A stretch of 45,055 bases of DNA from positions 1 through 45,055 of the IMG/VR virus record IMGVR_UViG_3300037515_000328. One strand, given 5' to 3'. This document shows, piece by piece, positions 2,873-40,831 of this stretch. Position 1 is the stretch's first letter. Every line of letters starts with the position of its first letter. The translations under genes and the position numbers were made by a program. The stretch comes from a virus (taxonomy: Duplodnaviria; Caudoviricetes). The notes beneath the pieces are model-generated. The model made no database searches. It saw nothing but the letters and a program-made list of their open reading frames with translations, and was not told where the DNA came from.

Positions 2873-3030
2873 GCACCAGTTAAAATATCGATGGTCTTAT
2901 TTATCTCCCTGCATTCGTGTTTTCCCCTTAATGTGGTCAGGTTTATCCTGTCACGCTTGTAGCGTAATTTGTAAACAACATATACTTTCAAGGCCCAAAG
3001 GCAAACGATGGTTATTGCTGCGTAGATCAT
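2842..3030 (-). CDS. Small membrane protein
   Basis: N-terminal hydrophobic helix; ATGA-type overlap with the upstream gene. Confidence 0.5.
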   Translation of the reverse strand: MIYAAITIVCLWALKVYVVYKLRYKRDRINLTTLRGKHECREINKTIDILTGAWLWSFRKKK

Positions 3031-3251
3031 AACATTATATTTTCTATTTCCCTTATAACATCATACCAAAAACCTTGTCCGTTTGAGTGCGATATCTTGC
3101 CGGTTTCGGCCTTTTCATCATCGTTCAAAACGTTTAAAATTTCACTTACTATAATTTCCGACATATTCCATGCGCAACGATCATTTATATCACCACAAAC
3201 ACAATCATTTACTTTTCTGAATAAATCCTTTGCTTTTTCTTTTGGCGTCAT
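3027..3251 (-). CDS. Hypothetical protein, MTPKEKA family paralogue 2
   Basis: MTPKEKAKDLFRKVNDCVCGDIN...FWYDVIREIENI. Confidence 0.75.
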   Translation of the reverse strand: MTPKEKAKDLFRKVNDCVCGDINDRCAWNMSEIIVSEILNVLNDDEKAETGKISHSNGQGFWYDVIREIENIML

Positions 3252-3263
3252 AAGTTAATATTT

Positions 3264-3485
3264 TCATGTATGTAAATTTCCGATTTCTTTTTTTACTTCT
3301 TCCCAATAATCATCAATACCATAACAAGTTCCTTCAATCTCCCCAAATTGATACACAACATTATCTAATATTTCATCACAAAACATTACGGCCATATCCT
3401 TCGTGTTCTGTAAATTTATATCCCCGCATACACATTTGTCCACTTTATTAAATAGATCCTGTGCTTTTTCTTTTGGTGTCATCAT
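3264..3485 (-). CDS. Hypothetical protein, MTPKEKA family paralogue 1
   Basis: MTPKEKAQDLFNKVDKCVCGDIN...YWEEVKKEIGNL. Confidence 0.75.
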   Translation of the reverse strand: MMTPKEKAQDLFNKVDKCVCGDINLQNTKDMAVMFCDEILDNVVYQFGEIEGTCYGIDDYWEEVKKEIGNLHT

Positions 3486-9490: not shown

Positions 9491-9527
9491 TTGTTTTTGG
9501 TTTTTAATTCCCCTGAATTCGGGGGTT

Positions 9528-9719
9528 TTAAATTGGAAATAGCGTTATCTCTATGTGTTCCGATGGTTCCTTAAGATCGAACCAGTGGATAACTTGGGCA
9601 ACTTCGTACATTGCGCCATCAATTACAACTTTTTCGTCTACCCTTGGGATTATCGGCGAACCTCCCATGGAAGTGAAAAGTTCATCTTCCGTTGTGTCGT
9701 GCGTAAATACTATTCTCAT
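9528..9719 (-). CDS. Hypothetical protein
   Basis: IPRVDEKVVIDGAMYEVAQVIH; AACCAAAA-type start region. Confidence 0.65.
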   Translation of the reverse strand: MRIVFTHDTTEDELFTSMGGSPIIPRVDEKVVIDGAMYEVAQVIHWFDLKEPSEHIEITLFPI

Positions 9720-9742
9720 AATTTTGGTTTTTGACGCAGTGG

Positions 9743-9958
9743 TTAATATCCTAAAGACCTATCAATAGATTCGTTTTCTAAAGATTCCATTCTGTCAATT
9801 GCTCGATTATTGTAAACACTTTGCAGGCATTGTTTTGGACTTAAAGAGCCATCAGTCAAGCAGGTTCCTACGCATTCACCGTTCTTTGTGACGGCCACAA
9901 AATAACCAGATTGTGTAATTGGCCCGTCTTCTAATCTTTCTATTCTTAATGTATTCAT
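9743..9958 (-). CDS. Hypothetical protein
   Basis: AAAAACCAAAAATCATG start region. Confidence 0.65.
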   Translation of the reverse strand: MNTLRIERLEDGPITQSGYFVAVTKNGECVGTCLTDGSLSPKQCLQSVYNNRAIDRMESLENESIDRSLGY

Positions 9959-9994
9959 GATTTTTGGTTTTTAAGTTTTGAATATGCAATTTTT

Positions 9995-10231
9995 TCATTT
10001 GACGCTCACCGTTGTTTCTGAATAAAAATTGCAATGATAGTTTTTAATTTCAGGTACAGCACAATCCCTATGTCCCCTCCTTTTTATAATTCCAGGCAAA
10101 TGTGTACCAATTATGTCTACAACGCCTCTGCCTTTTTTTGTGGTTGAATAGGATATGATTTCTATTTTGACCCAAACATTATAAAATTTTACTGTTTGTC
10201 CTACTTTTAAATCTTTTGCTATTATTTTCAT
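9995..10231 (-). CDS. Hypothetical protein (first gene after the promoter at 10255-10284)
   Basis: MKIIAKDLKVGQTV; AAAAACCAAATATCATG start region. Confidence 0.65.
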   Translation of the reverse strand: MKIIAKDLKVGQTVKFYNVWVKIEIISYSTTKKGRGVVDIIGTHLPGIIKRRGHRDCAVPEIKNYHCNFYSETTVSVK

Positions 10232-10254
10232 GATATTTGGTTTTTAATTATACC

Positions 10255-10284
10255 CAAATATACAAAACATTTTCCAATAACAAA
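10255..10284 (-). promoter_or_regulatory. Bacteroidota sigma70-type promoter
   Basis: Minus strand TTTG-N18-TATATTTG, matching the -33/-7 consensus TTTG/TAnnTTTG. Confidence 0.7.
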
Positions 10285-10355
10285 CCATTTTACCTTAAAA
10301 AAGTTTCATTTATTTTATTTATGCCTTAAAATGTGGCTCGTATCGGGATAATTCC

Positions 10356-10363
10356 TATATTTG
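10356..10363 (+). promoter_or_regulatory. -7 element TATATTTG, divergent promoter for the candidate sRNA
   Basis: Perfect TAnnTTTG; the -33 element is weak. Confidence 0.5.
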
Positions 10364-10367
10364 GGAT

Positions 10368-10459
10368 AGGGATGGTTACCCTTTTCATGATTTTGGTTAT
10401 TTGGTTTTGACGAGTTTCGTTAACCTAAAAGCTCCTTGGTGTATCCTTGGGGCTTTTTT
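10368..10459 (+). ncRNA. Candidate ~90-nt small RNA antisense to phage translation-initiation regions
   Basis: Lies between a -7 box and an intrinsic terminator; hairpins AGGG/CCCT and GACGA/TCGTT flank the seed TTTTCATGATTTTGGTTAT. Confidence 0.45.
10427..10459 (+). terminator. Intrinsic terminator (possibly bidirectional)
   Basis: AAAAGCTCC-ttGGtgtatCCtt-GGGGCTTTTTT. Confidence 0.7.
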
Positions 10460-10463
10460 GTTG

Positions 10464-10814
10464 TCAATATTTAAATTCGATAAGACCCTTTCTTGTCCCG
10501 TCCGTCATTGCAACAATGGGGATCCCAAGCCTAAAGGCCAGTTTTATTTCTTCGGCCATGCCATTGCTTATCCTGTCACCGTACAACCTTATTTCGCCTA
10601 TGAATCCACGGTTAAGAAGTTCGATGTCGTTCTTGATGCCCCTCGCCCGTTCACTTGGTACGTTGTCGTCAAGACACTTGCAGTCCAAAAAGTAGGGTGC
10701 GAACGGGACAACGTTCGGCTCGGTGAGGTTTATGGTCCTCGCTATGGATCTTATCTTTCTAAGGTTTCCCTTTACGTCCCCGCCTATGGGGTGGGCTATA
10801 TATGCTATTTTCAT
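10464..10814 (-). CDS. DUF4406-like / nucleoside 2-deoxyribosyltransferase-like fold protein
   Basis: AYIAHPIGGD...PFAPY...LYGDRISNGMAEEIKLAFRLGIPI. Confidence 0.7.
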   Translation of the reverse strand: MKIAYIAHPIGGDVKGNLRKIRSIARTINLTEPNVVPFAPYFLDCKCLDDNVPSERARGIKNDIELLNRGFIGEIRLYGDRISNGMAEEIKLAFRLGIPIVAMTDGTRKGLIEFKY

Positions 10815-10829
10815 TTGGTTTATTTTTTG

Positions 10830-11099
10830 TTAATTCCAGTTTTTTAATACTTCATAATCGGTAAAATCTTCGTAGCCAAGATGATGGTTGGAAGTTTCCC
10901 AAATCGGTTGTCTATTTTCAAGTTGCTTATTTTTTTTGGTAAAATTAGACTGTAGCAATCCGTTATCAGGACTATCTATCCTATACTTCAGACAACCCGA
11001 CCAATGTTTGGCCCTTACTATTTTACCGTCCATCATTTGTTTTTTGGCCCATTTCCAAGAGCCTTTTAATCCAAAAAATCTAATGATCCAATTTTTCAT
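10830..11099 (-). CDS. Hypothetical protein with a DUF2829/Tad2-like N-terminus
   Basis: SWKWAKKQMMDGKIVRAKHWSG...FTDYEV resembles the F..AL..LK.GKKV.R..W...DW pattern. Confidence 0.45.
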   Translation of the reverse strand: MKNWIIRFFGLKGSWKWAKKQMMDGKIVRAKHWSGCLKYRIDSPDNGLLQSNFTKKNKQLENRQPIWETSNHHLGYEDFTDYEVLKNWN

Positions 11100-11103
11100 T
11101 TGT

Positions 11104-16773: not shown

Positions 16774-17175
16774 TCATTCTTTATCATTTTTAGGTAAAAT
16801 TATTTCGGGCAAATATCCATATGATTCCAAAACCTTGTTTTCATGATCACTTAGTCGGTTCCTTAGATGTAATAGAATGTCTCCTGGCATAATGTTGAAA
16901 TCTCCAAAATTTACATAAGCGTCCCTTATCCTGTCTTCGTATGTGAATGCCGTTGGGAATGTTTTGTTTATGGAGTGTATTACCGTTACGTGATCGTTTC
17001 CTGTGGATAGTCCTATTTCCGTAAGGGTCATTGGTGTGTTTTCCCTTGCCAACTTAAAGTATAGCGACTTAGCGTATGCTACTTCCCTTCTTCTTGTTTT
17101 TTGGGATATGACAACACCAAGGGCCTGTTCTACATATCTCTGAATGGCCTCTGCTTTTATTTTTATTTTATCCAT
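16774..17175 (-). CDS. DnaA C-terminal-like HTH protein
   Basis: KTRRREVAYAKSLYFKLARENTPMTLTEIG...DHVTVIHS matches the DnaA domain IV signature. Confidence 0.8.
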   Translation of the reverse strand: MDKIKIKAEAIQRYVEQALGVVISQKTRRREVAYAKSLYFKLARENTPMTLTEIGLSTGNDHVTVIHSINKTFPTAFTYEDRIRDAYVNFGDFNIMPGDILLHLRNRLSDHENKVLESYGYLPEIILPKNDKE

Positions 17176-17906: not shown

Positions 17907-20015
17907 CTATTTGTGATAGAATGCTTGAAATCTTACAATGTCCATATATTCAGGCGATTTTATAAGTCCGTCACCCATTCCTGAAAGCGATTCAGCTCCC
18001 GACTCATCTATAACGACCCTAGAGTCTGTTTCTTTAGGAACCCTGAAACATATTTGTACCGGGAAATTAACTTTTGCATCGCCTGTGATTACTTTTACTG
18101 ACGCCCTTTGGGTTGCTGCTATTACCCTAAACCCTGTTGACCGCCCCTTTTGAAGCAACACCCGCATGTTTTCCTCCAAAGACTTTAAATCTGCGATTTT
18201 AACACGTTGTGTTTTTGCTTGCGGAGACATACCCATTAACATGGCTTCTTTTGATAGTCTATAACTACCCACCTCTTGTACTTCAAAGACCTCTAATTCT
18301 TTTCCTTTTCTTGATGCGGACACGGCGTCTGCAAATTCATCGAACACAACCATTATTTTTTCCTTTCTGCCGTTCTTTACAAGTTCGTTCATGTATTCGA
18401 CAAGGTTCGCCATTTCTTCTTCTATCTCAATTATCTCATTAAATACCTGTACGCTTGAATCTTTTTGGTATGAAAGGAACTCATATTTTGGATCAAAAAT
18501 AACCACCCTGTCCACCTTTGCCAATTTAGCGTATTCAATGGTTGATTTTATCGAAACCGACTTACCGGACCCAGTTGCGCCGCAAACAAGTACGTGTGGG
18601 GTAGAATGGTTTTCAAGGTCCCAAAAAATAGTGTTGTCATAATTATCCTTTCCGATGGGAATTTTCATTCCAATCAATTCATCTTTATCCCAAACCAAAT
18701 CCTTTTCACGTTTTTTGGAAAACTCTATGGCGAGGTATGATTTTCCATCATGTATGGTCAAGTCCTTTGATACACGAATGTTTGAAACGTTCAATGCGTT
18801 TGCAAGGTCCAGCCTATAATTATGGATAGACGCTATTTTGGTGCCTGCCGAAACCTCCAGGAGATATGAATTACTGGAGTACCCACTGAATACATGTGCC
18901 ACCCTAACTATTATGCCGAACGTCCTTAGTACGTGCTCTATTTTTTCTTCTTTTGTCATGTCTTTGTTGCTTAGGTCGTATTGGATGAAATTGGATGCGT
19001 TCTGTTTGAATTTCTTTATAACTGTTGGGTTTACGGTTGTGATAGAAGCGTCCCTTATCTTTTTTAGACGCTTTGAAACAAGCTCCTTTTTTGATTCGTG
19101 TACATTGAAGTCCTCGACCTCCGAAATCATTGTCTTGGCCCAAAAATCATATATTTCAGCTCTATCTACGTAGTTATCGGAATCGTTTATAAGATAAACG
19201 TAATCAGGGTCATTTACCGCTTGTATCATCTTTCTAAGCGGCTCGTACAACAAAGCTTCATAAAGCCTTCTCACATCGTCCGTTAACTCTATTTTAAAGC
19301 AGTTTAGTTGTGGAGATTTATCCCTGTTGTTGGAATATTTATTCTCGACAAACCAAACTTCGTCAACAACTATACCTGTTTTTGCTTCATAAAGTTTTAC
19401 GTATGTGATTGCTTGAACACCTATTGAAAGGGCAAGCTCTTCTTCTGAAGAAAAATAACCCTTTGATTTGTGGTCAACTATAACTATTTTACCGTCCACA
19501 GTTTCGATGACCAGATCAATAATTCCGCTACATGGCAATGGAATGTCCACGCCGTTTATTGTGAGGAACTCAAAAGCTTTTACCTCAACGTCCAAAACCC
19601 TTTTTAAGCTGCTTTCGTATGTTGAAATCTCATAAAAGAAATTTCGTATTAGGTTAATTGATGTTGAGGTGGCTTTTTTAATGCATTCCTCTATCGTTGG
19701 AACGGTTTTTTGTATTTTCCATGAATCTGCGGATACATTTTCAATGTAGTCTATGGCCAACTTTTCAAGATCCACAATGTCTAATGTTTTACCCTCTTTT
19801 TTTGCATTAAAATAACCTTCCAATGCGAAATGGTATGCGTTACCGGATATTGCGGTGGCCGCTTTTTTATACCCATAACCATATATATAACTCATTTCAA
19901 AGGCCTTCTCGTTTCTTGCGAACTGCGTCACCTTAGAATAGCTCCACCTGTCAATTAAGAACTGGCTAAAATGTTCCTCAAGTTCTAATTCAGAATAGTC
20001 TTTGTATACACTCAT
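17907..20015 (-). CDS. PD-(D/E)XK nuclease-FtsK/SpoIIIE motor fusion
   Basis: N-terminal WSYS...GNAYH...GIIDLV...IVDHKS...QAITY; FtsK alpha-like region; PHVLVCGATGSGKS, FDEFAD, KGRSTG..VIAATQR, GAESLSGMGDGL. Confidence 0.85.
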   Translation of the reverse strand: MSVYKDYSELELEEHFSQFLIDRWSYSKVTQFARNEKAFEMSYIYGYGYKKAATAISGNAYHFALEGYFNAKKEGKTLDIVDLEKLAIDYIENVSADSWKIQKTVPTIEECIKKATSTSINLIRNFFYEISTYESSLKRVLDVEVKAFEFLTINGVDIPLPCSGIIDLVIETVDGKIVIVDHKSKGYFSSEEELALSIGVQAITYVKLYEAKTGIVVDEVWFVENKYSNNRDKSPQLNCFKIELTDDVRRLYEALLYEPLRKMIQAVNDPDYVYLINDSDNYVDRAEIYDFWAKTMISEVEDFNVHESKKELVSKRLKKIRDASITTVNPTVIKKFKQNASNFIQYDLSNKDMTKEEKIEHVLRTFGIIVRVAHVFSGYSSNSYLLEVSAGTKIASIHNYRLDLANALNVSNIRVSKDLTIHDGKSYLAIEFSKKREKDLVWDKDELIGMKIPIGKDNYDNTIFWDLENHSTPHVLVCGATGSGKSVSIKSTIEYAKLAKVDRVVIFDPKYEFLSYQKDSSVQVFNEIIEIEEEMANLVEYMNELVKNGRKEKIMVVFDEFADAVSASRKGKELEVFEVQEVGSYRLSKEAMLMGMSPQAKTQRVKIADLKSLEENMRVLLQKGRSTGFRVIAATQRASVKVITGDAKVNFPVQICFRVPKETDSRVVIDESGAESLSGMGDGLIKSPEYMDIVRFQAFYHK

Positions 20016-20857
20016 GGCATTTCGTTTTTGTTAAAAAGACCATCTTTAGTGTCTTCTTGTTTGTTTTTTAGGACCGTTTTTTTGGTATCTGCCTTTTTTT
20101 CGTTTGTGTTCCTAAAAGATTCCTCTACGGTGGTATCCCCATCCTTTATAGCCTGTCCAATACCTATGATTACAACCAGATCATCGGACGTTACATGTGT
20201 TATTGATGCCTTTCCTACGCTGGTCAAGATTTCTTTTTCAGTAACTTGATATGTGTCCTTTAGCTTATCGAAAACCTCTTTTCTTCTTGTGATCAATTTG
20301 GTTTCGTCCGAAACATCACCTGTTATTTTTTTACAGGCTTCGGAATATACCCTGTCTATTACAGACTTTGGGACCACGGCGTAAATGGCGTTTCGTAAGG
20401 CAATAGAGTTTCCAGCGTTTCCGGTAACAGTTATCATGTCGTCGCTCATTCTTCCGGTCCTTGTCATTATTGACCTTTTTACCTCTGTTTTTATAGCTAT
20501 GTTGTTTTCCAAATCCCAACATATGCCCTGTGAAGTAACGTGCTTGTTGTCGATGTTTATAACCCGGCTCTCTATCCGCATGTTCTTCCATTGCTGTGCA
20601 ATTATTTTGGCAAGGTGCACGGAAGGGCCTGTTATGGCTTTCCCCGCCCTTGGAACAGAATATGTACATGATGAAGCCGTTTTTCTGTCCATCGTAGCTA
20701 TGGCTATTGCGTTTTCGATAGACCTGGTTATGTTTCTTGGATACGCTTTTGCGCTTGATATCTGTATATCAATTTGCGCTTTGTCCTGTAGGTATAGCAC
20801 TTCGGTGCTAATTTCTTGGATGTTTTCCTCTACTGTAATTAAATTTTCTGCGCTCAT
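20012..20857 (-). CDS. Putative single-strand annealing/recombination protein
   Basis: AKAYPRN...YSVPRAGKAITGPSVHLAKIIAQQWKN family; adjacent to the nuclease as in exo/SSAP pairs. Confidence 0.5.
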   Translation of the reverse strand: MSAENLITVEENIQEISTEVLYLQDKAQIDIQISSAKAYPRNITRSIENAIAIATMDRKTASSCTYSVPRAGKAITGPSVHLAKIIAQQWKNMRIESRVINIDNKHVTSQGICWDLENNIAIKTEVKRSIMTRTGRMSDDMITVTGNAGNSIALRNAIYAVVPKSVIDRVYSEACKKITGDVSDETKLITRRKEVFDKLKDTYQVTEKEILTSVGKASITHVTSDDLVVIIGIGQAIKDGDTTVEESFRNTNEKKADTKKTVLKNKQEDTKDGLFNKNEMP

Positions 20858-20877
20858 AATTTTGGTTTTAAAAATGG

Positions 20878-21711: not shown

Positions 21712-22037
21712 GCTGTAGGATTATTTAGGCCCATGGCCGTTAGATCTTCATTATATCCCATCCCCGCAATGGATTCGTATATCGGGAACACTACCGCCCT
21801 AATGGCGTTCTTTTTCGTTTCACAGTTGGTCTCCGAGTACTCCACTAAAAAGTAGTGGCAGAACTCGTACAGGCCCTCTATATCAGTCAATAGGTTGTAA
21901 GCGGGCTGCATATATTCGTTTGCATACTTTCCAAGTCCTATCCAGTACATTGGCGGCATTTGGTTTATGAACACCAGTGCTTTTGTCTGTTGCTTTCTGC
22001 GTTTTTTTAGAATTTTGATTATGTTTTTCATGGTCAT
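21708..22037 (-). CDS. Hypothetical protein
   Basis: ATGA overlap with the upstream gene. Confidence 0.6.
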   Translation of the reverse strand: MTMKNIIKILKKRRKQQTKALVFINQMPPMYWIGLGKYANEYMQPAYNLLTDIEGLYEFCHYFLVEYSETNCETKKNAIRAVVFPIYESIAGMGYNEDLTAMGLNNPTA

Positions 22038-22465
22038 GGGTTTAAAGTTTGCAAATAAGCCTTACAAGCGTTGTAAACGGCCTGTATACGCCTAAATTCT
22101 TCCGTATCCCTTTGGGTTTCGTAGACTTCATCCGAAGCAAAGAACTCGTCCCATTCTGAAACACTATGTATTTTGCATCCAATTTTAATTTTATCATCAA
22201 CCACGGAGTGGTCCCATTTGCAAAAAATGGGAAGGTCTGCCCCTCCAAGGTCTGCCCCTCTAAGGTCTGCCCCTCCAAGGTCTGCCCCTCTAAGGTCTGC
22301 CCCTCCAAGGTATGCCCCTCCAAGGTCTGCCCCTCCAAGGTATGCCCCTCCAAGGTCTGCCCCTTCTTTAACAGCTTTGTGCAATGTTTCTTTGATTGTG
22401 TTAGATTCTTTTTCATATTCAAAAAGAATTTTGCCTAATACTGATTTAATTTGAATTTTGATCAT
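22034..22465 (-). CDS. Pentapeptide-repeat protein
   Basis: Nine GA(D/Y)L(G/R/P) repeats followed by IKIGCKIHSVSEW. Confidence 0.9.
   Translation of the reverse strand: MIKIQIKSVLGKILFEYEKESNTIKETLHKAVKEGADLGGAYLGGADLGGAYLGGADLRGADLGGADLRGADLGGADLPIFCKWDHSVVDDKIKIGCKIHSVSEWDEFFASDEVYETQRDTEEFRRIQAVYNACKAYLQTLNP
22232..22366. repeat. Nine tandem 15-bp repeats (consensus aaggtctgcccctcc) encoding the pentapeptides
   Basis: Directly visible. Confidence 0.95.
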
Positions 22466-22562: not shown

Positions 22563-22892
22563 TTAGTAGTCGTCTGAATAAAGTCCGTACCTTTCTTGCA
22601 TCCCCGGTTCTGGAAGTTCCCTGGTCTCTGTAATTTCCTCCACCTTGTTTAAAATTGCGTTCTGCATTTTCAATCGCTGCCCTTCGGTGGTTTCCATTTG
22701 AACCCATTTCCCCACGGACATCCGTCCGAAGTCCTCAACTACCAAATGGTGTCCATTCTTCATTTCCCCGTGGAAGTTCATCGAGTAGCTTCCGTGACAG
22801 GATTCAAATCCAACCGTATCCAGTTCGTCTCCACTGGTGCATTTTAGGCTTTCCATCAGTTTGATGAAAATGTCGTTGCTTAGGTTTTTCAT
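22563..22892 (-). CDS. Hypothetical protein (first gene of the leftward early operon)
   Basis: Likely start MKNLSND at 22892, just after a promoter. Confidence 0.65.
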   Translation of the reverse strand: MKNLSNDIFIKLMESLKCTSGDELDTVGFESCHGSYSMNFHGEMKNGHHLVVEDFGRMSVGKWVQMETTEGQRLKMQNAILNKVEEITETRELPEPGMQERYGLYSDDY

Positions 22893-22919
22893 GATTATAT
22901 GTTTTGATTTTTGATTATT

Positions 22920-22950
22920 CAAAACTAACCATAAATATTCGTTCCACCAA
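22920..22950 (-). promoter_or_regulatory. Leftward early promoter
   Basis: TTG-N20-TAGTTTTG on the minus strand. Confidence 0.65.
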
Positions 22951-22991
22951 ATAAAAATGAAATTATTTTTTCAAGGATATTTGTTTTTTTG

Positions 22992-23023
22992 TTTGGATAA
23001 TATATAGGATGTTTGTATATTTG
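22992..23023 (+). promoter_or_regulatory. Rightward promoter (divergent pair)
   Basis: TTTG-N20-TATATTTG. Confidence 0.7.
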
Positions 23024-23045
23024 GGGAAACTAAATAATTAAGGTT

Positions 23046-23501
23046 ATGAGTAGAGAAATAAAATTTAGAGCATGGGACGGTAAAAAAATGTGGTATGATG
23101 GGGATATATATCAGAATGGAAATGACTATAGTAGGTCGTATCCGTGCCAAGTTACAAACCGGGGAATTGAGTACATAAAAACTTACGAAACCAAATACAA
23201 GGAAACAATCCGAGATGAGCAAGGGCGGGAAGGATATCAGGCTTGGGATTTAGAAAAAACAAACTCCAAAGTAGAAATAATGCAATACACTGGCCTAAAG
23301 GACAAGAACGGAAACGAAATATACGAGGGCGATATTTGTAAATTTATCGACCATCCTACTGATGTTGATACATGTATTTCGTGTGTTAAGTTTTCAGAAG
23401 GTAATTTTATAGATGGATATATGGGGTGGCCTATAAATAATTATGGATCAGATTGGATTGAAATACTCGGCAACATCCACCAAAACCCCGAACTACCATG
23501 A
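23046..23501 (+). CDS. YopX family protein
   Basis: REIKFRAWD...MQYTGLKDKNGNEIYEGDI...EILGNIHQNPEL. Confidence 0.95.
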   Translation: MSREIKFRAWDGKKMWYDGDIYQNGNDYSRSYPCQVTNRGIEYIKTYETKYKETIRDEQGREGYQAWDLEKTNSKVEIMQYTGLKDKNGNEIYEGDICKFIDHPTDVDTCISCVKFSEGNFIDGYMGWPINNYGSDWIEILGNIHQNPELP

Positions 23502-31575: not shown

Positions 31576-32277
31576 TTAATAAAGTCTTACCGTTACTTTT
31601 TCCCCCACTTCAAGGTCATACAGGATCGTTACCTCATCACCTGTTATTATATAGTCATCGTCCAAAAACTGCCAAACCCTTCCCACGTATACGTCCACGT
31701 TTGTAGGCGTTCGGCTAAGGGTAAAAGTGAAAGGTCCAGTTGTCCATGTAAATTCCTCCTTTGTGGAAACCTCAACGCCTTCCAATTTATCCTTTTCAGC
31801 AGTAGAAAAGTTATTTAATGTTACCCCTGCCTCTGTTCCGTTGCCTAGTGGAATTACAGCATCTGTTCCCGTATCACTTGCGACCGTTCTGGTGGTGGCA
31901 TCCCCCGAAGTGGATAGGTTGGTGGTTCCAACACCCGCCGTTAACAATATCCAAGAACTTCCGTTATTCTGGTACAGGGAAGTTCCGTTCCTTACATACC
32001 AATCTCCTATGCCAAAACTTCCAGGAGGCGTTACGTTCGGGTCCGCTGTCCCTGTGTGTATATCAAACCCAGAACTACCTGAATTTACGATCTCGTTTAT
32101 TGCGGCCACTATGCTGCTTTGGTCAGTGGTCGCCAATGAGCCTAGGTCCCCTACCTTATTGTTGGGCTGTTCCAGCATGGCCACAAGCACTGGGCGCAGC
32201 ACGTTGGCCGTAATTTCGTTGTTGCCGTTCGCAATGATATACAAGTTTATCAGTGCCAATACCTGTGCCTCTGTCAT
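31576..32277 (-). CDS. Fibre/adaptor protein
   Basis: N-terminal IIANGNNEITANVLRPVL; VGDLGSLATTDQSSIVAAINEI; C-terminal DYIITGDEVTILYDLEVGEKVTVRLY beta-sandwich. Confidence 0.7.
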   Translation of the reverse strand: MTEAQVLALINLYIIANGNNEITANVLRPVLVAMLEQPNNKVGDLGSLATTDQSSIVAAINEIVNSGSSGFDIHTGTADPNVTPPGSFGIGDWYVRNGTSLYQNNGSSWILLTAGVGTTNLSTSGDATTRTVASDTGTDAVIPLGNGTEAGVTLNNFSTAEKDKLEGVEVSTKEEFTWTTGPFTFTLSRTPTNVDVYVGRVWQFLDDDYIITGDEVTILYDLEVGEKVTVRLY

Positions 32278-32873
32278 AGCTGTGTAATATAAAAATCATT
32301 CGAGTAATCGTCTGAAAAATCACCCCCCAAAAGTTCGCCTATCCCTGAAAAATCGTTGTCAAAGTTTATTTTGTCACCACTATAAACATAAGGAATGTCA
32401 TCTTCTGGATATTTGCTTACCAAGCTCAATCCAATGCCTCCCAGTCCGTTCTGAGCTTCGTAAGAATAGTCTACCGTTGTCAATCCGTTTTCAAAGCCAT
32501 AGATCTCCACGGTACCGTCCCTGAACTGTATCGCCGCAAAATAGTTCGCAAGGTCCAGTTCCTTTAATATCAATTTCGTTTCTATACTGACCCCTATAAC
32601 AGGGATGTTCACCGTGTGGTCATATAGCGGTTGTCCCTTCCTTGTGGACTTGCTGAAGCTTGCGGAATACAGGCTCCCGATTTCGTTGCCTATGTATTTG
32701 TATCCGGTTGCCCCATCCACCAAATTGAAATTAATCGAATGCCCTACATTGCTCACATCATAAGAAACCTCGTTCACGTCCTCTAGGTTTACAAGGACCA
32801 CCTGCTGCCAGTACTTTCGTAGCGGTAGTTCACATCGGACGTCATGTCCCCTCATAAGTTCCTTACAGGCCAT
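32274..32873 (-). CDS. Tail-tube-like structural protein, paralogue of 35370..35960
   Basis: Shares RKY(W/Y)QQ, DGTVEIYGF(E/V)NGLTT and DYSY with 35370..35960; extra C-terminal GGDFSDDYSNDF. Confidence 0.7.
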   Translation of the reverse strand: MACKELMRGHDVRCELPLRKYWQQVVLVNLEDVNEVSYDVSNVGHSINFNLVDGATGYKYIGNEIGSLYSASFSKSTRKGQPLYDHTVNIPVIGVSIETKLILKELDLANYFAAIQFRDGTVEIYGFENGLTTVDYSYEAQNGLGGIGLSLVSKYPEDDIPYVYSGDKINFDNDFSGIGELLGGDFSDDYSNDFYITQL

Positions 32874-35369: not shown

Positions 35370-35960
35370 TTAACTCCCTACAGCAAAGGCATCATCGAAA
35401 TCCTCGTTTTCCTGTCCAGGCACCGCACTTTCGTACACTAATGGTAGGCTACCCTCTGGGGCATCTTCCAAAGAAGAAAGTATGATCTGGGTTCCACCGC
35501 CCCCTTCTTGTACGTTATAGGAGTAGTCCCCTGTAGTAAGACCGTTCACGAAACCATATATCTCCACGGTGCCATCCTTTAACTGAAGGGCTACAACGAA
35601 AGACCCTTTGTCCAACGAATCCAAGATACATTTAGCTTCCTCGGTAACCCCTGTGATAAGAATGCCCACATTGTGGATATACTGTGGATAACCAAGATCG
35701 CTACGTGACTTGTCAAAAGAACCATAGAACGAACTTCCCGCCTCGGTCCCTATGATAGGGTAGCCAGTGGTACCTGCCTTAAGGGCAAACGCAACCTTGT
35801 AGTCGCATACCTCTGTCTCTGGATCTGGCAACGTTATCGTGGACGTATCGATATCGGTCTTATTGATAAGCACCGCCTGTTGGTAATATTTCCTTGCAGG
35901 GGCTATACAGCTACCATCGTAACTGTTGAACAACCTTGCGCATGTTGATGTAACTGCCAT
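35370..35960 (-). CDS. Putative major tail (tube) protein
   Basis: 196 aa, acidic and beta-rich, directly after the capsid gene; ends EDFDDAFA. Confidence 0.6.
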   Translation of the reverse strand: MAVTSTCARLFNSYDGSCIAPARKYYQQAVLINKTDIDTSTITLPDPETEVCDYKVAFALKAGTTGYPIIGTEAGSSFYGSFDKSRSDLGYPQYIHNVGILITGVTEEAKCILDSLDKGSFVVALQLKDGTVEIYGFVNGLTTGDYSYNVQEGGGGTQIILSSLEDAPEGSLPLVYESAVPGQENEDFDDAFAVGS

Positions 35961-38338: not shown

Positions 38339-38521
38339 ATGGAACACATTGATTTTGTATTATGGATGGTTCTTTATCCAATAGCTAGCGGCATAACGAA
38401 TTATTTGGGCACCAAATCAAGAATTCTTGAGGGCCTGCCTCCGTATGGTAAGACAACTACCGCATTGGCCTCCCTAACAACTATTGTTATATGGATTTAC
38501 GTAGCAACTTTATTGTACTGA
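38339..38521 (+). CDS. Small two-TM protein
   Basis: Two hydrophobic segments. Confidence 0.6.
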   Translation: MEHIDFVLWMVLYPIASGITNYLGTKSRILEGLPPYGKTTTALASLTTIVIWIYVATLLY

Positions 38522-38522
38522 T

Positions 38523-38747
38523 ATGTATGGCTTTGCCGTTTTCGTGATATTTGTAGTGATCGGATATAGGTTCGCCCGACAAAAGAACCCGTACATACGT
38601 GCGCACCAAAAGAAATGGAAGAACGAAAAGGACTATGATGGGTATATTAAATGGTTGGATTCAAAAGGTGGGGATATGCCAATTAAGGAAGTGAAGGGTA
38701 AAGAGGAGCGGGAGTTGATGAAGGAAATTGAAAATAATTTTAAATAG
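38523..38747 (+). CDS. Small N-terminally anchored membrane protein
   Basis: MYGFAVFVIFVVIGY. Confidence 0.6.
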   Translation: MYGFAVFVIFVVIGYRFARQKNPYIRAHQKKWKNEKDYDGYIKWLDSKGGDMPIKEVKGKEERELMKEIENNFK

Positions 38748-38778
38748 CATTAAGTTTTTTCGTACATTTATATCAAAT

Positions 38779-38847
38779 CCGCCAAGATGAAAATATTAAC
38801 CCATCCCCTTTTCGTTTTACTTGGCGGTAACGATTAGGGGATTTTTA
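38779..38847 (+). promoter_or_regulatory. Attenuator-like leader with a 16-aa leader ORF (38787..38837)
   Basis: CCGCCAAG pairs with CTTGGCGG in the loop of ATCCCCT/TCGTT...AACGA/AGGGGAT-TTTT. Confidence 0.55.
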
Positions 38848-38859
38848 TTAACCAAAATC

Positions 38860-39201
38860 ATGAAATTAAAGAAAAGAATCAAATCGGCACTGGCGGCATT
38901 CCTTAGGGAAGAACTTTTGGAATACATCGGTTACAGACACGAATTACCGTACAGCGCACTTAACAATAGTTTCCGTGTTGAGAATATTGAGTTTGACACT
39001 ATGGTCATGGAGCATGTTATTAATCTTCACGGAATGGATGACGAGCCTATGTACATTGAAAGGGAGATTGATAGGTGTAGACGACAATTTGCAAATGAGG
39101 TCTTGCAACATATACATGTGGACGCCCAAGACCTTGTGAGTCCAGAATTTGCAATGCGCAGAATGGTAAGGTTTACATTAAGGGTTCAACGTAAAAAATA
39201 G
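38860..39201 (+). CDS. Hypothetical protein
   Basis: Likely start MKLKKRIK at 38860 (AACCAAAATCATG). Confidence 0.65.
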   Translation: MKLKKRIKSALAAFLREELLEYIGYRHELPYSALNNSFRVENIEFDTMVMEHVINLHGMDDEPMYIEREIDRCRRQFANEVLQHIHVDAQDLVSPEFAMRRMVRFTLRVQRKK

Positions 39202-39205
39202 GTTT

Positions 39206-39400
39206 ATGAGAGTAATAAAGAAAATCATAGTTTATACCGACGTGTCTCAAAAAGACATCGAAAAGTTTCATGAAGAAAAGGACAGGGTAAACGATGAAGG
39301 AATGGTTATATCTGAATTTAAATGCAATTATAACCATTGGGAACCGAATAAAGTAGAGGTGACGTATGTCAATCCATGCGAATACTGTTTCAATCCTTAA
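39206..39400 (+). CDS. Hypothetical protein
   Basis: Follows 38860..39201 by 4 nt. Confidence 0.55.
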   Translation: MRVIKKIIVYTDVSQKDIEKFHEEKDRVNDEGMVISEFKCNYNHWEPNKVEVTYVNPCEYCFNP

Positions 39401-39626
39401 CGTAAGATTTCATGTCGCTAACAGCCCTCCTTACCGTTGTGACACTTGATCTTGTTTCATTTGCAACAATAATGTACCTGTTCGTCTTTGAACCGCTCTT
39501 TATATCCATATAGGTCTTATAGATATTATAGTATACCAAAAGCTTTCCCGACACATACCCGTCTTTGGTCAGCGTCCTGATCATTTCAATATTCTGTTCG
39601 ACAAACTTGTACTTTTGTTTTCTCAT
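39390..39626 (-). CDS. HTH protein, candidate late-gene regulator
   Basis: Likely start MRKQKY by ATGA overlap with the glycosyltransferase; VANETRSSVTTVRRAVSDM. Confidence 0.6.
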   Translation of the reverse strand: MRKQKYKFVEQNIEMIRTLTKDGYVSGKLLVYYNIYKTYMDIKSGSKTNRYIIVANETRSSVTTVRRAVSDMKSYVKD

Positions 39627-40831
39627 TTCAAATGTTGTCTGTCCTTGGATGGGTTCTCGCTCCAAATCCTGTAAAGGTGGTAAACGTAAAGACCCTTCAT
39701 AAGACCCAATTTATATCCCTTCCTTCGTACCGATTTGCTGAATGCGTCATCAAAAGCGATATTGTTTTCCTCGAATTTGCATTCGTTCCAAACGCTCTTG
39801 GGGAAAAGCATAAACATTCCCGCAATGTATTTCTTGTCAGTGATGTCCTCGACTTCGGCCCAATTTTCCTTTTCCTTTTGTCTACCTATTTCTGCATGTC
39901 GCAACATATCGTGGTATTCGTTCATATCACCTACCCGTTGAATGTCCCTACCCAGCCTGTTAGTCACACATCCGATCAACCCGAACTCGTCACCGTGCTT
40001 TCGTATTGCATCCTCAATTTGCCTTCCCCAATTCGGTGTAAGGTAGGCAATATCCCCGTCCTGTAAACATATCCAACTTCCATCCGGCACAAGTTCGCAA
40101 AACTCGTTCAATGCTTTACCTATATTCTTTTCCGTGCTGTATGGGTTGGAATAGAAAACCCGAATACGTTCGTCCTTTTTGTACGGTATGAACTCCTTAC
40201 TATCCAACTTTTCAAAATATCTCCTTTTGTTCTGGGCCAAATATTTCCCACGGTCAGGGGTTGACGTTCTGTTTTCCTTTGGGTTCTGGTCCATGCAGTA
40301 CAAATGTCTGCCGCTTCCCATTACATCCATGAACGGGTGGGGGATAAGCCCTGCATTAAATACACGGTTGGAAAATGCCCCATGCCAGTAGCCGTACTTT
40401 ATGAATCCAGTATCGAAACCTCCGACCTTTTGAAGAACCTCTTTTGTAAGGTATATCATGCATCCGTTCGGGTTTTCGAAATGGAGCAGACCGTTTACCA
40501 ATTTGAATTTATATTTAAAAGTATAGTTCAAATGAGCGGCCCCCGATTTGATGTATAGTTGTTCCCATCCAGATTTAATGGGATACGTATCATCATCGAA
40601 AAGGAAAATGTGGTCACAACCTTCCAAAAGTTCTAAACATTTGTTCTTTGCTATCGGGGAACCTTGGTTGACATCGAATCGGAACGTTGCGTGTGGTACT
40701 GGTATTTTGCTCCCATCATCGACAACCACCAATTTATACGGGACATTTGTAAACTGTTTGATGCGTTCAATTGTATCCAAAACCTGGGCGTTCCTGTCTT
40801 TTGTTGTAATTCCGATTCCTATGCTTTCCAA
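39623..40831 (-). CDS. Two-domain GT-A (GT2-like) glycosyltransferase
   Basis: Domain 1 IGITTKDR, VVVDDGS, FLFDDD, VGGFD; domain 2 NIGKALNEF, CLQDGD, AGMFMLFPKSVW, FDDAFS, YVYHLYR. Confidence 0.85.
   Translation of the reverse strand: MESIGIGITTKDRNAQVLDTIERIKQFTNVPYKLVVVDDGSKIPVPHATFRFDVNQGSPIAKNKCLELLEGCDHIFLFDDDTYPIKSGWEQLYIKSGAAHLNYTFKYKFKLVNGLLHFENPNGCMIYLTKEVLQKVGGFDTGFIKYGYWHGAFSNRVFNAGLIPHPFMDVMGSGRHLYCMDQNPKENRTSTPDRGKYLAQNKRRYFEKLDSKEFIPYKKDERIRVFYSNPYSTEKNIGKALNEFCELVPDGSWICLQDGDIAYLTPNWGRQIEDAIRKHGDEFGLIGCVTNRLGRDIQRVGDMNEYHDMLRHAEIGRQKEKENWAEVEDITDKKYIAGMFMLFPKSVWNECKFEENNIAFDDAFSKSVRRKGYKLGLMKGLYVYHLYRIWSENPSKDRQHLK

Follow-up and report, generated by a model that had tools for sequence, protein, structure and literature searches.

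Does the DNA at positions 10356 to 10459 of this phage encode a small RNA, and would such an RNA act on the start codons of the phage's own genes? The preliminary description proposed that it does, with an unpaired stretch masking the AUGs of several early phage genes in trans. We analysed the window, that is, the whole stretch of 45,055 nt, which is a whole virus record and 100% complete according to CheckV.

Phage genome and probable host

Annotation of 62 ORFs against PHROGs identified a terminase, portal, maturation protease, tape measure protein, endolysin, helicase, methyltransferase and an exonuclease-FtsK fusion. The methyltransferase shares 87% identity with Flavobacterium phage methyltransferases, and the sole match of the capsid among phage records is an Elizabethkingia phage, so the host, judged from these proteins, likely belongs to Flavobacteriia. 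The phage itself comes from sediment. In line with the statement that the phage has no CI, neither a CI nor an integrase was matched in PHROGs (62 ORFs) or Pfam (53 scans). Pfam assigned a DnaA-type HTH protein to 16774-17175.

Other features of the genome were recorded in passing. A 702-aa fusion of a PD-(D/E)XK nuclease and an FtsK/HerA ATPase (17907-20015, minus strand) adjoins the possible annealing protein 20857. A second divergent region lies at 22892-23046, where TATATTTG occurs at +23016 with a perfect -33 box and heads a three-gene + strand unit (YopX, a 53-aa PHROG 34662 protein and an 85-aa protein). Two minus-strand structural genes (32274-32873 and 35370-35960) match the same relatives at 30-40% identity and are paralogue-like, as is the tandem pair at 3027-3251 and 3264-3485. 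A glycosyltransferase with two domains (39623-40831, minus strand) lies within the structural module.

Anatomy of the cassette

The minus strand carries nearly all genes of the phage, and the cassette runs opposite to the genes around it, as had been claimed. The reported TATATTTG box is present on the + strand, and folding recovered the two short hairpins, the unpaired middle and the U-tailed terminator (Table 1). Since this promoter box is reported to span -12 to -5 (PMC9723704), the RNA is predicted to start near 10368 and to be about 92 nt long.

Table 1. Positions of the cassette, of overlapping reading frames and of predicted target sites in the window
Feature	Position	Strand	Remarks
Possible -33 box TGTG	10332..10335	+	One mismatch to TTTG; 20 nt before the -7 box
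Bacteroidota sigma-A -7 box TATATTTG	10356..10363	+	Predicted start ~10368
Predicted 5' hairpin	10368..10382	+	4 bp, 7-nt loop with GGUU; from folding
Unpaired seed UUUUCAU-N6-GGUU	10382..10399	+	Antisense to AACCAAAAUYAUGA-type start regions
Predicted second hairpin	10403..10425	+	5' arm repeats UGGUUUUG; from folding
Intrinsic terminator	10427..10459	+	Stronger on + than on -
Divergent TATATTTG box	10255..10262	-	TTTG 18 nt upstream; ahead of small genes 10231, 9958, 9719, 9490
20-codon antisense ORF MKRVTIPIPNIGIIPIRATF	10326..10388	-	Would depend on read-through from gene 10814
12-codon hydrophobic ORF MVTLFMILVIWF	10372..10410	+	Inside the predicted RNA
Best predicted target, start of gene 38860 (113 aa)	38849..38865	+	-20.0 kcal/mol
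Predicted target, start of gene 9719	9713..9729	-	-16.4 kcal/mol
Predicted target, start of gene 9958	9954..9981	-	-16.2 kcal/mol
Predicted target, start of YopX-family gene 23046	23026..23050	+	-15.8 kcal/mol; not named in the preliminary description
Predicted target, start of gene 20857	20853..20867	-	-15.1 kcal/mol

The terminator scores -16.1 kcal/mol with 6 U on the + strand, compared with -11.0 kcal/mol with 4 U on the minus strand, and the region is without any + strand gene needing termination. Mismatches in its stem caused it to be missed by a standard terminator scan, which also omits Bacteroidota promoters. Genome-wide, 103 sites fit TAnnTTT[G/A]; a terminator follows within 130 nt at two of them, and of these two only the 10356 element has an anti-AUG seed. 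Folding of the RNA as a whole gave a z-score of only -1.96, with 6/200 shuffles equally good. Taken together with the recurrence described below, we consider the cassette very probably a real RNA gene.

Fit of the seed to the phage's own gene starts

With up to three mismatches, the 16-mer of the seed had seven matches, one being the element itself, compared with 1.36 ± 1.08 expected; 0/100 shuffles reached seven. We ranked targets with an accessibility-corrected duplex model of our own, covering 74 start regions of the phage (Table 1). The UGGUUUUG repeat in the second hairpin can prolong pairing upstream of the 9719 and 9958 starts. Scores of ≤ -12 kcal/mol were found for 7/36 non-structural, 1/33 structural and 2/4 opposite-strand insert genes.

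A 30-nt seed, its window picked after the matches had been seen, gave a top-5 mean of -23.0 kcal/mol against the start regions. Shuffled seeds averaged -15.5 ± 1.4 (0/300 reached the seed), and the best of 72 antisense copies of real starts scored -20.6 kcal/mol, so that the seed outperformed every control of both kinds. In this comparison median pairing was stronger for the 36 non-structural starts than for the 33 structural ones (-7.8 versus -4.5, p 5e-6). When the 59-nt body was scanned for raw duplexes, start sites did not stand out: 38860 lay outside the top 30, and G-U-rich noise dominated.

The individual matches varied in quality. We recovered the perfect 17-nt match to the 38860 start, but by itself it is poor evidence, since the real starts 9719 and 20857 likewise have 17 nt in common; it cannot be taken as the mark of a dedicated target, and the seed may be no more than a reflection of a house-style start motif. 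Near-perfect matches had been claimed for four further starts: those at 9719 and 20857 do pair, via G-U wobbles, whereas those at 9958 and 10231 have three mismatches in register and need a bulge. The 11-nt match at 22892 exists in the sequence, but accessibility scores of only -5.5 kcal/mol for 22892 and -9.5 kcal/mol for 10231 argue against counting these two genes in the regulon. The label of 20857 as SSAP-like is no more than a lead: its nearest named Atlas clusters are Rad52/RecT/Sak, at 0.76-0.78, its PHROG (3657) has no assigned function, and Pfam gave no hit.

We then set 14 seeds against 14 phage start sets in a cross test based on crude gene calls, with G426 left out as a relative of G421 and the self-site of G420 excluded. 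On its own genome, the seed of this phage exceeded the expected fit by 3.5-4.3 kcal/mol (SD ~1), the best of all seed-genome pairs tested. Six of its own 74 starts lie within three mismatches of the seed, versus 1.2% in other phages. Covariation of seed and targets across the 13 other carriers, which are analogues since no orthologues were found, is weak (permutation p 0.046-0.11), and 9/13 have no start of their own within three mismatches. Because these carriers fit their own starts so weakly, targeting of its own genes appears peculiar to this phage, and the host may be the aim of the class as a whole.

Gene 38860 and its leader

The gene with the best predicted target site has 24 homologues besides itself (36-61% identity). 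No family was found for it in PHROGs or Pfam, no usable match in the Atlas, and its structure model is of low confidence (pLDDT 61, pTM 0.39). In 5/5 other phages the homologues lack both the leader and the AACCAAAAUYAUGA-type start motif.

The leader itself (38766-38849, + strand) is attenuator-like, with promoter-like TACATTTA, an 8-nt 5' motif complementary to the terminator loop, and a 16-codon uORF from 38787 whose stop lies inside the 3' arm of the terminator. Its two folds are nearly equal (terminator -19.9, antiterminator -19.4 kcal/mol). Co-folding with the RNA gave -10.4 at the 5' antiterminator arm, leaving the terminator intact, and -21.4 at the AUG. A double lock on 38860, at attenuator and AUG, is only hinted at by these models because the antiterminator-arm site scored only -9.4 in the accessibility model. 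We note the same design at L197:45-150 (G010, a capsid relative), where a promoter-terminator cassette ahead of a gene has a 5' motif complementary to its terminator loop. Four opposite-strand genes occupy 38339-39400 (+ strand), between the maturation protease and gene 39626; this looks like a moron slot because the relatives G008 and G009 carry other opposite-strand inserts at the equivalent spot.

Recurrence of the layout in other phages

Searches for close relatives returned none. A blastn search of 9500-11100 against 50,697 phage records gave no match, and the element alone gave only short matches in 12 records (best E 0.1). The exact seed occurred at four viral loci, all chance matches, and a single-protein scan with gene 38860 gave 0/18. 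None of the five phages that encode a 38860 homologue carries the element. The records of seven capsid relatives are fragmentary, with structural genes only, and a capsid profile had no match in 401 Flavobacteriaceae genomes. Capsids of 75-86% identity are encoded on long contigs (37-42 kb). Among sequencing runs, no RNA run was listed for this DNA, and the three small-share DNA runs gave no coverage of 10242-10509.

Because no orthologue was found, we examined the layout as a class. The viral scan pattern combined the box, TTTTCAT-N6-GGTT and T6, and left the hairpin unspecified. It returned 36 loci, and 22/36 had a hairpin of ≤ -12 kcal/mol before the U tract, compared with 7/250 other U6 tracts in the same loci. 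After sequence clustering, 12/20 independent clusters had a terminator hairpin, including one (L217) that lies at the hairpin threshold and may be a coding-region artefact. A control with a reversed (scrambled) box returned 26 loci (26/26 scored) in nine clusters, and 0/9 had the hairpin (Fisher p 0.003). The same scorer gave the 10356 element a hairpin of -13.3 kcal/mol, with box, seed and hairpin in order within ~110 nt. A first viral scan without the U tract had returned at least 120 loci, with a hairpin of ≤ -12 in 2/101 distinct matches listed.

All six members of one family have the same box, seed and terminator, with indels on both sides of the seed, and the element points away from a run of small genes, as in the window. 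The antisense ORF in this family is 4, 11 or 32 aa long; its length varies while the seed does not, which indicates an RNA class. Further examples are L016, L136 and a boxless one in G005. The G005 locus (L172:13386-13445, at ~93390) and L179:1462-1500 of G006 have the seed and a strong terminator but no box, right after a 504-codon gene, and are possibly a 3'-UTR-derived form of the class. At G012 12867 (minus strand, in L200), we observed a box with two anti-AUG stretches and GGUU, and a terminator; the spacer there is longer, nearer to FopS spacing.

A sequence profile built from 17 other elements ranked 10356-10461 first in the window, at full length (E 1.2e-4, filters off), although it is partly circular because its members came from a pattern drawn from the 10356 element; with default filters the element was missed. 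Beyond viral records, a metagenome scan gave five matches, none with a G+C terminator, and a genome scan found the layout in 1/23, the L136 locus already named. In 401 Flavobacteriaceae genomes, the pattern had 5 matches versus 6 for the control, so this is not a common host sRNA in the genomes searched. The signature of the class is simple, the controls are clean and independent examples number at least 11-12, which makes the class testable with reporters in Flavobacterium.

Alternative explanations

Host mRNAs are a serious rival target, since the 13 other carriers barely fit their own starts. The RNA could be real but mainly host-directed, a possibility that we hold only tentatively. It would then repress envelope mRNAs with AUGAAA starts in the manner of FopS (TonB-dependent receptors, porins and lipoproteins, for example cutting superinfection) or titrate a host RNA-binding protein, and its match to phage starts would be incidental to a shared start style. 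In most other carriers the seed does not mirror the phage's own starts. In two Flavobacteriaceae genomes, 17 sites match the seed with at most one mismatch (16 stretches cover all 17) and the ATG is kept in 12/17; products include a TonB-dependent receptor, an outer-membrane (porin-like) barrel, a DUF1254 lipoprotein and a PKD protein. There is precedent, as FopS is reported to repress susC mRNAs, to bind RbpB and to have a copy in a Caudovirales phage (PMC11697453), and the prophage sRNA svsR to repress lamB (PMC12803456). However, these host matches are few, 6 and 11 per genome compared with 4 and 6 for a reversed control, in genomes that may not be the true host's. The ATGAAA pattern by itself favours signal peptides, and no other seed-genome pair tested fits as well as this seed with its own phage.

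Alternatively, the + strand may give no functional RNA. The motif would then be the start of a 20-aa minus-strand ORF, which exists as described (10388 to 10326), or a vestigial copy of some gene start, for example the 9719 one, and read-through from 10814 would reach it. Upstream of the ORF, A occupies -3, -6, -12 and -13, the positions named for Flavobacterium johnsoniae (PMC7797042), the upstream sequence resembles that of 9719, runs like the seed match are common to real starts, and the minus-strand hairpin is weak, with 4 U. We nevertheless regard this as unlikely. It does not explain why a minus-strand region should contain a + strand box together with a terminator that favours the + strand, nor does it account for the class statistics (12/20 versus 0/9 clusters). 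The codon score of the ORF points neither way, at the 12th percentile of in-frame windows and the 70th of off-frame ones, tblastn found no match to it in phages, and the length of the antisense ORF is not conserved in the six-member family.

Less likely again is an RNA that acts in cis. It would pair fully with read-through from the replication/methylase operon and so either serve as an insulator of the 10231 cassette or, as in type I toxin-antitoxin systems, silence the 20-aa peptide. The element and gene 10814 converge, any read-through RNA would be its full complement, and the minus-strand terminator is predicted to be leaky. Cis pairing does not need a conserved seed, but the seed is the invariant part of the class, and many class members run in the same direction as their neighbours. 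A type I system would have its antisense ORF, but the peptide contains three prolines and has no match to a Pfam family or in phages.

Finally, a short-leader mRNA for the 12-aa hydrophobic peptide MVTLFMILVIWF is very improbable: the frame is open with a high codon score (0.34) and leaderless mRNAs are reported at 5.5% in F. psychrophilum (PMC9723704), but a score from twelve codons is noisy, the AUG is 4 nt from the predicted start, where it follows G-rich sequence and lies within a hairpin loop, and most aligned class members lack such an ATG ahead of the seed.

Proposed mechanism and significance

The reading that we favour, with a confidence that is about evenly balanced, is a stand-alone gene for a ~92-nt trans-acting sRNA that would pair across the AUG of phage mRNA starts of the AACCAAAAUYAUGA type and block their translation. 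What stands of the original start-masking proposal is the layout, which recurs in unrelated phages, and the fit to the phage's own non-structural starts; the membership of 10231 and 22892 does not. We infer transcription of the ~92-nt RNA, its pairing in the cell and the resulting repression. Host RNA polymerase would make the RNA at entry together with the divergent 10231-9490 cassette; both promoters would fire then because they lie back to back. Bacteroidota ribosomes are reported to read an A-rich start region instead of a Shine-Dalgarno sequence (PMC7797042). The seed would cover this A-rich region and the AUG of matching phage mRNAs, and as the RNA built up, translation of these mRNAs would fall and the target genes would be damped. 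The main predicted targets would be 38860 and the non-structural genes 9719, 9958, 23046 and 20857. Some host mRNAs with the same start would probably also be struck.

A broader and more speculative version, which we rate as doubtful, is that the element belongs to a widespread undescribed sRNA class of Bacteroidota phages and is tuned here into a master translational repressor of a start-motif regulon, serving in place of a protein repressor or timer, with a double lock on 38860. We found no description of a phage sRNA class of this layout in the open-access literature searched. If the start-masking reading holds, start-codon context itself would be the address of a regulon, and Bacteroidota phages would apply a trick like that of FopS and GibS to their own genes or to host envelope genes. 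In the broader version the class would exploit the phylum's absence of Shine-Dalgarno pairing. The RNA would also be a compact design for translational silencing in a phylum that also lacks Hfq.

Comparison with known RNAs

An Rfam search with the 10356 element gave no relevant family, GibS and phage regulatory RNAs included, and a sequence look-up returned nothing similar. FopS (RF04319) is similar in several respects as reported in PMC11697453: a canonical Bacteroidota promoter, a single-stranded U-rich 5' part, UUUUCAU followed by GGUU, an intrinsic terminator and start-codon pairing, which is predicted here. The two differ in that the reported FopS consensus has a 14-nt spacer between CAU and GGUU, compared with 6 nt in the phage class, and in that FopS is multicopy in Bacteroidaceae chromosomes, whereas the phage element is single-copy (one full-length match in the window) in what is probably a phage of Flavobacteriia, contains additional hairpins and matches the starts of the phage's own genes. 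We rejected membership in FopS: the covariance model (cut-off 56 bits) had no match at 10356 at E ≤ 10, nor at 16 class loci, while the B. thetaiotaomicron control was matched. The best score of that model in the window was 18.6 bits at 22021-22105 (+ strand), antisense to the 22037 start. MasB was also rejected, as it is reported to bind ~40 nt inside the coding region (PMC10994844) and the 11 of its 20 supplements searched gave no seed match.

Phage-encoded RNAs that base pair with phage or host mRNAs include c4 of P1/P7, svsR, VpdS and DicF (PMC12197685, PMC12803456). All of these are from Proteobacteria phages, and none is described in those accounts as mirroring a multi-gene start motif. 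GibS of Bacteroides thetaiotaomicron is closer, as reported in PMC7366714: its long unstructured seed covers start codons, small hairpins separate this seed from the terminator, and its phylum lacks Shine-Dalgarno pairing. GibS is chromosomal, 145 nt long, and has a non-canonical promoter and metabolic targets. As for GibS, our computations give an accessible seed complementary to start regions above chance. GibS and FopS both repress by pairing at start codons (PMC7366714, PMC11697453), and with support at the level of the class and targets that are predicted, the 10356 cassette appears to be a phage-borne variant of these start-codon-masking sRNAs of Bacteroidota.
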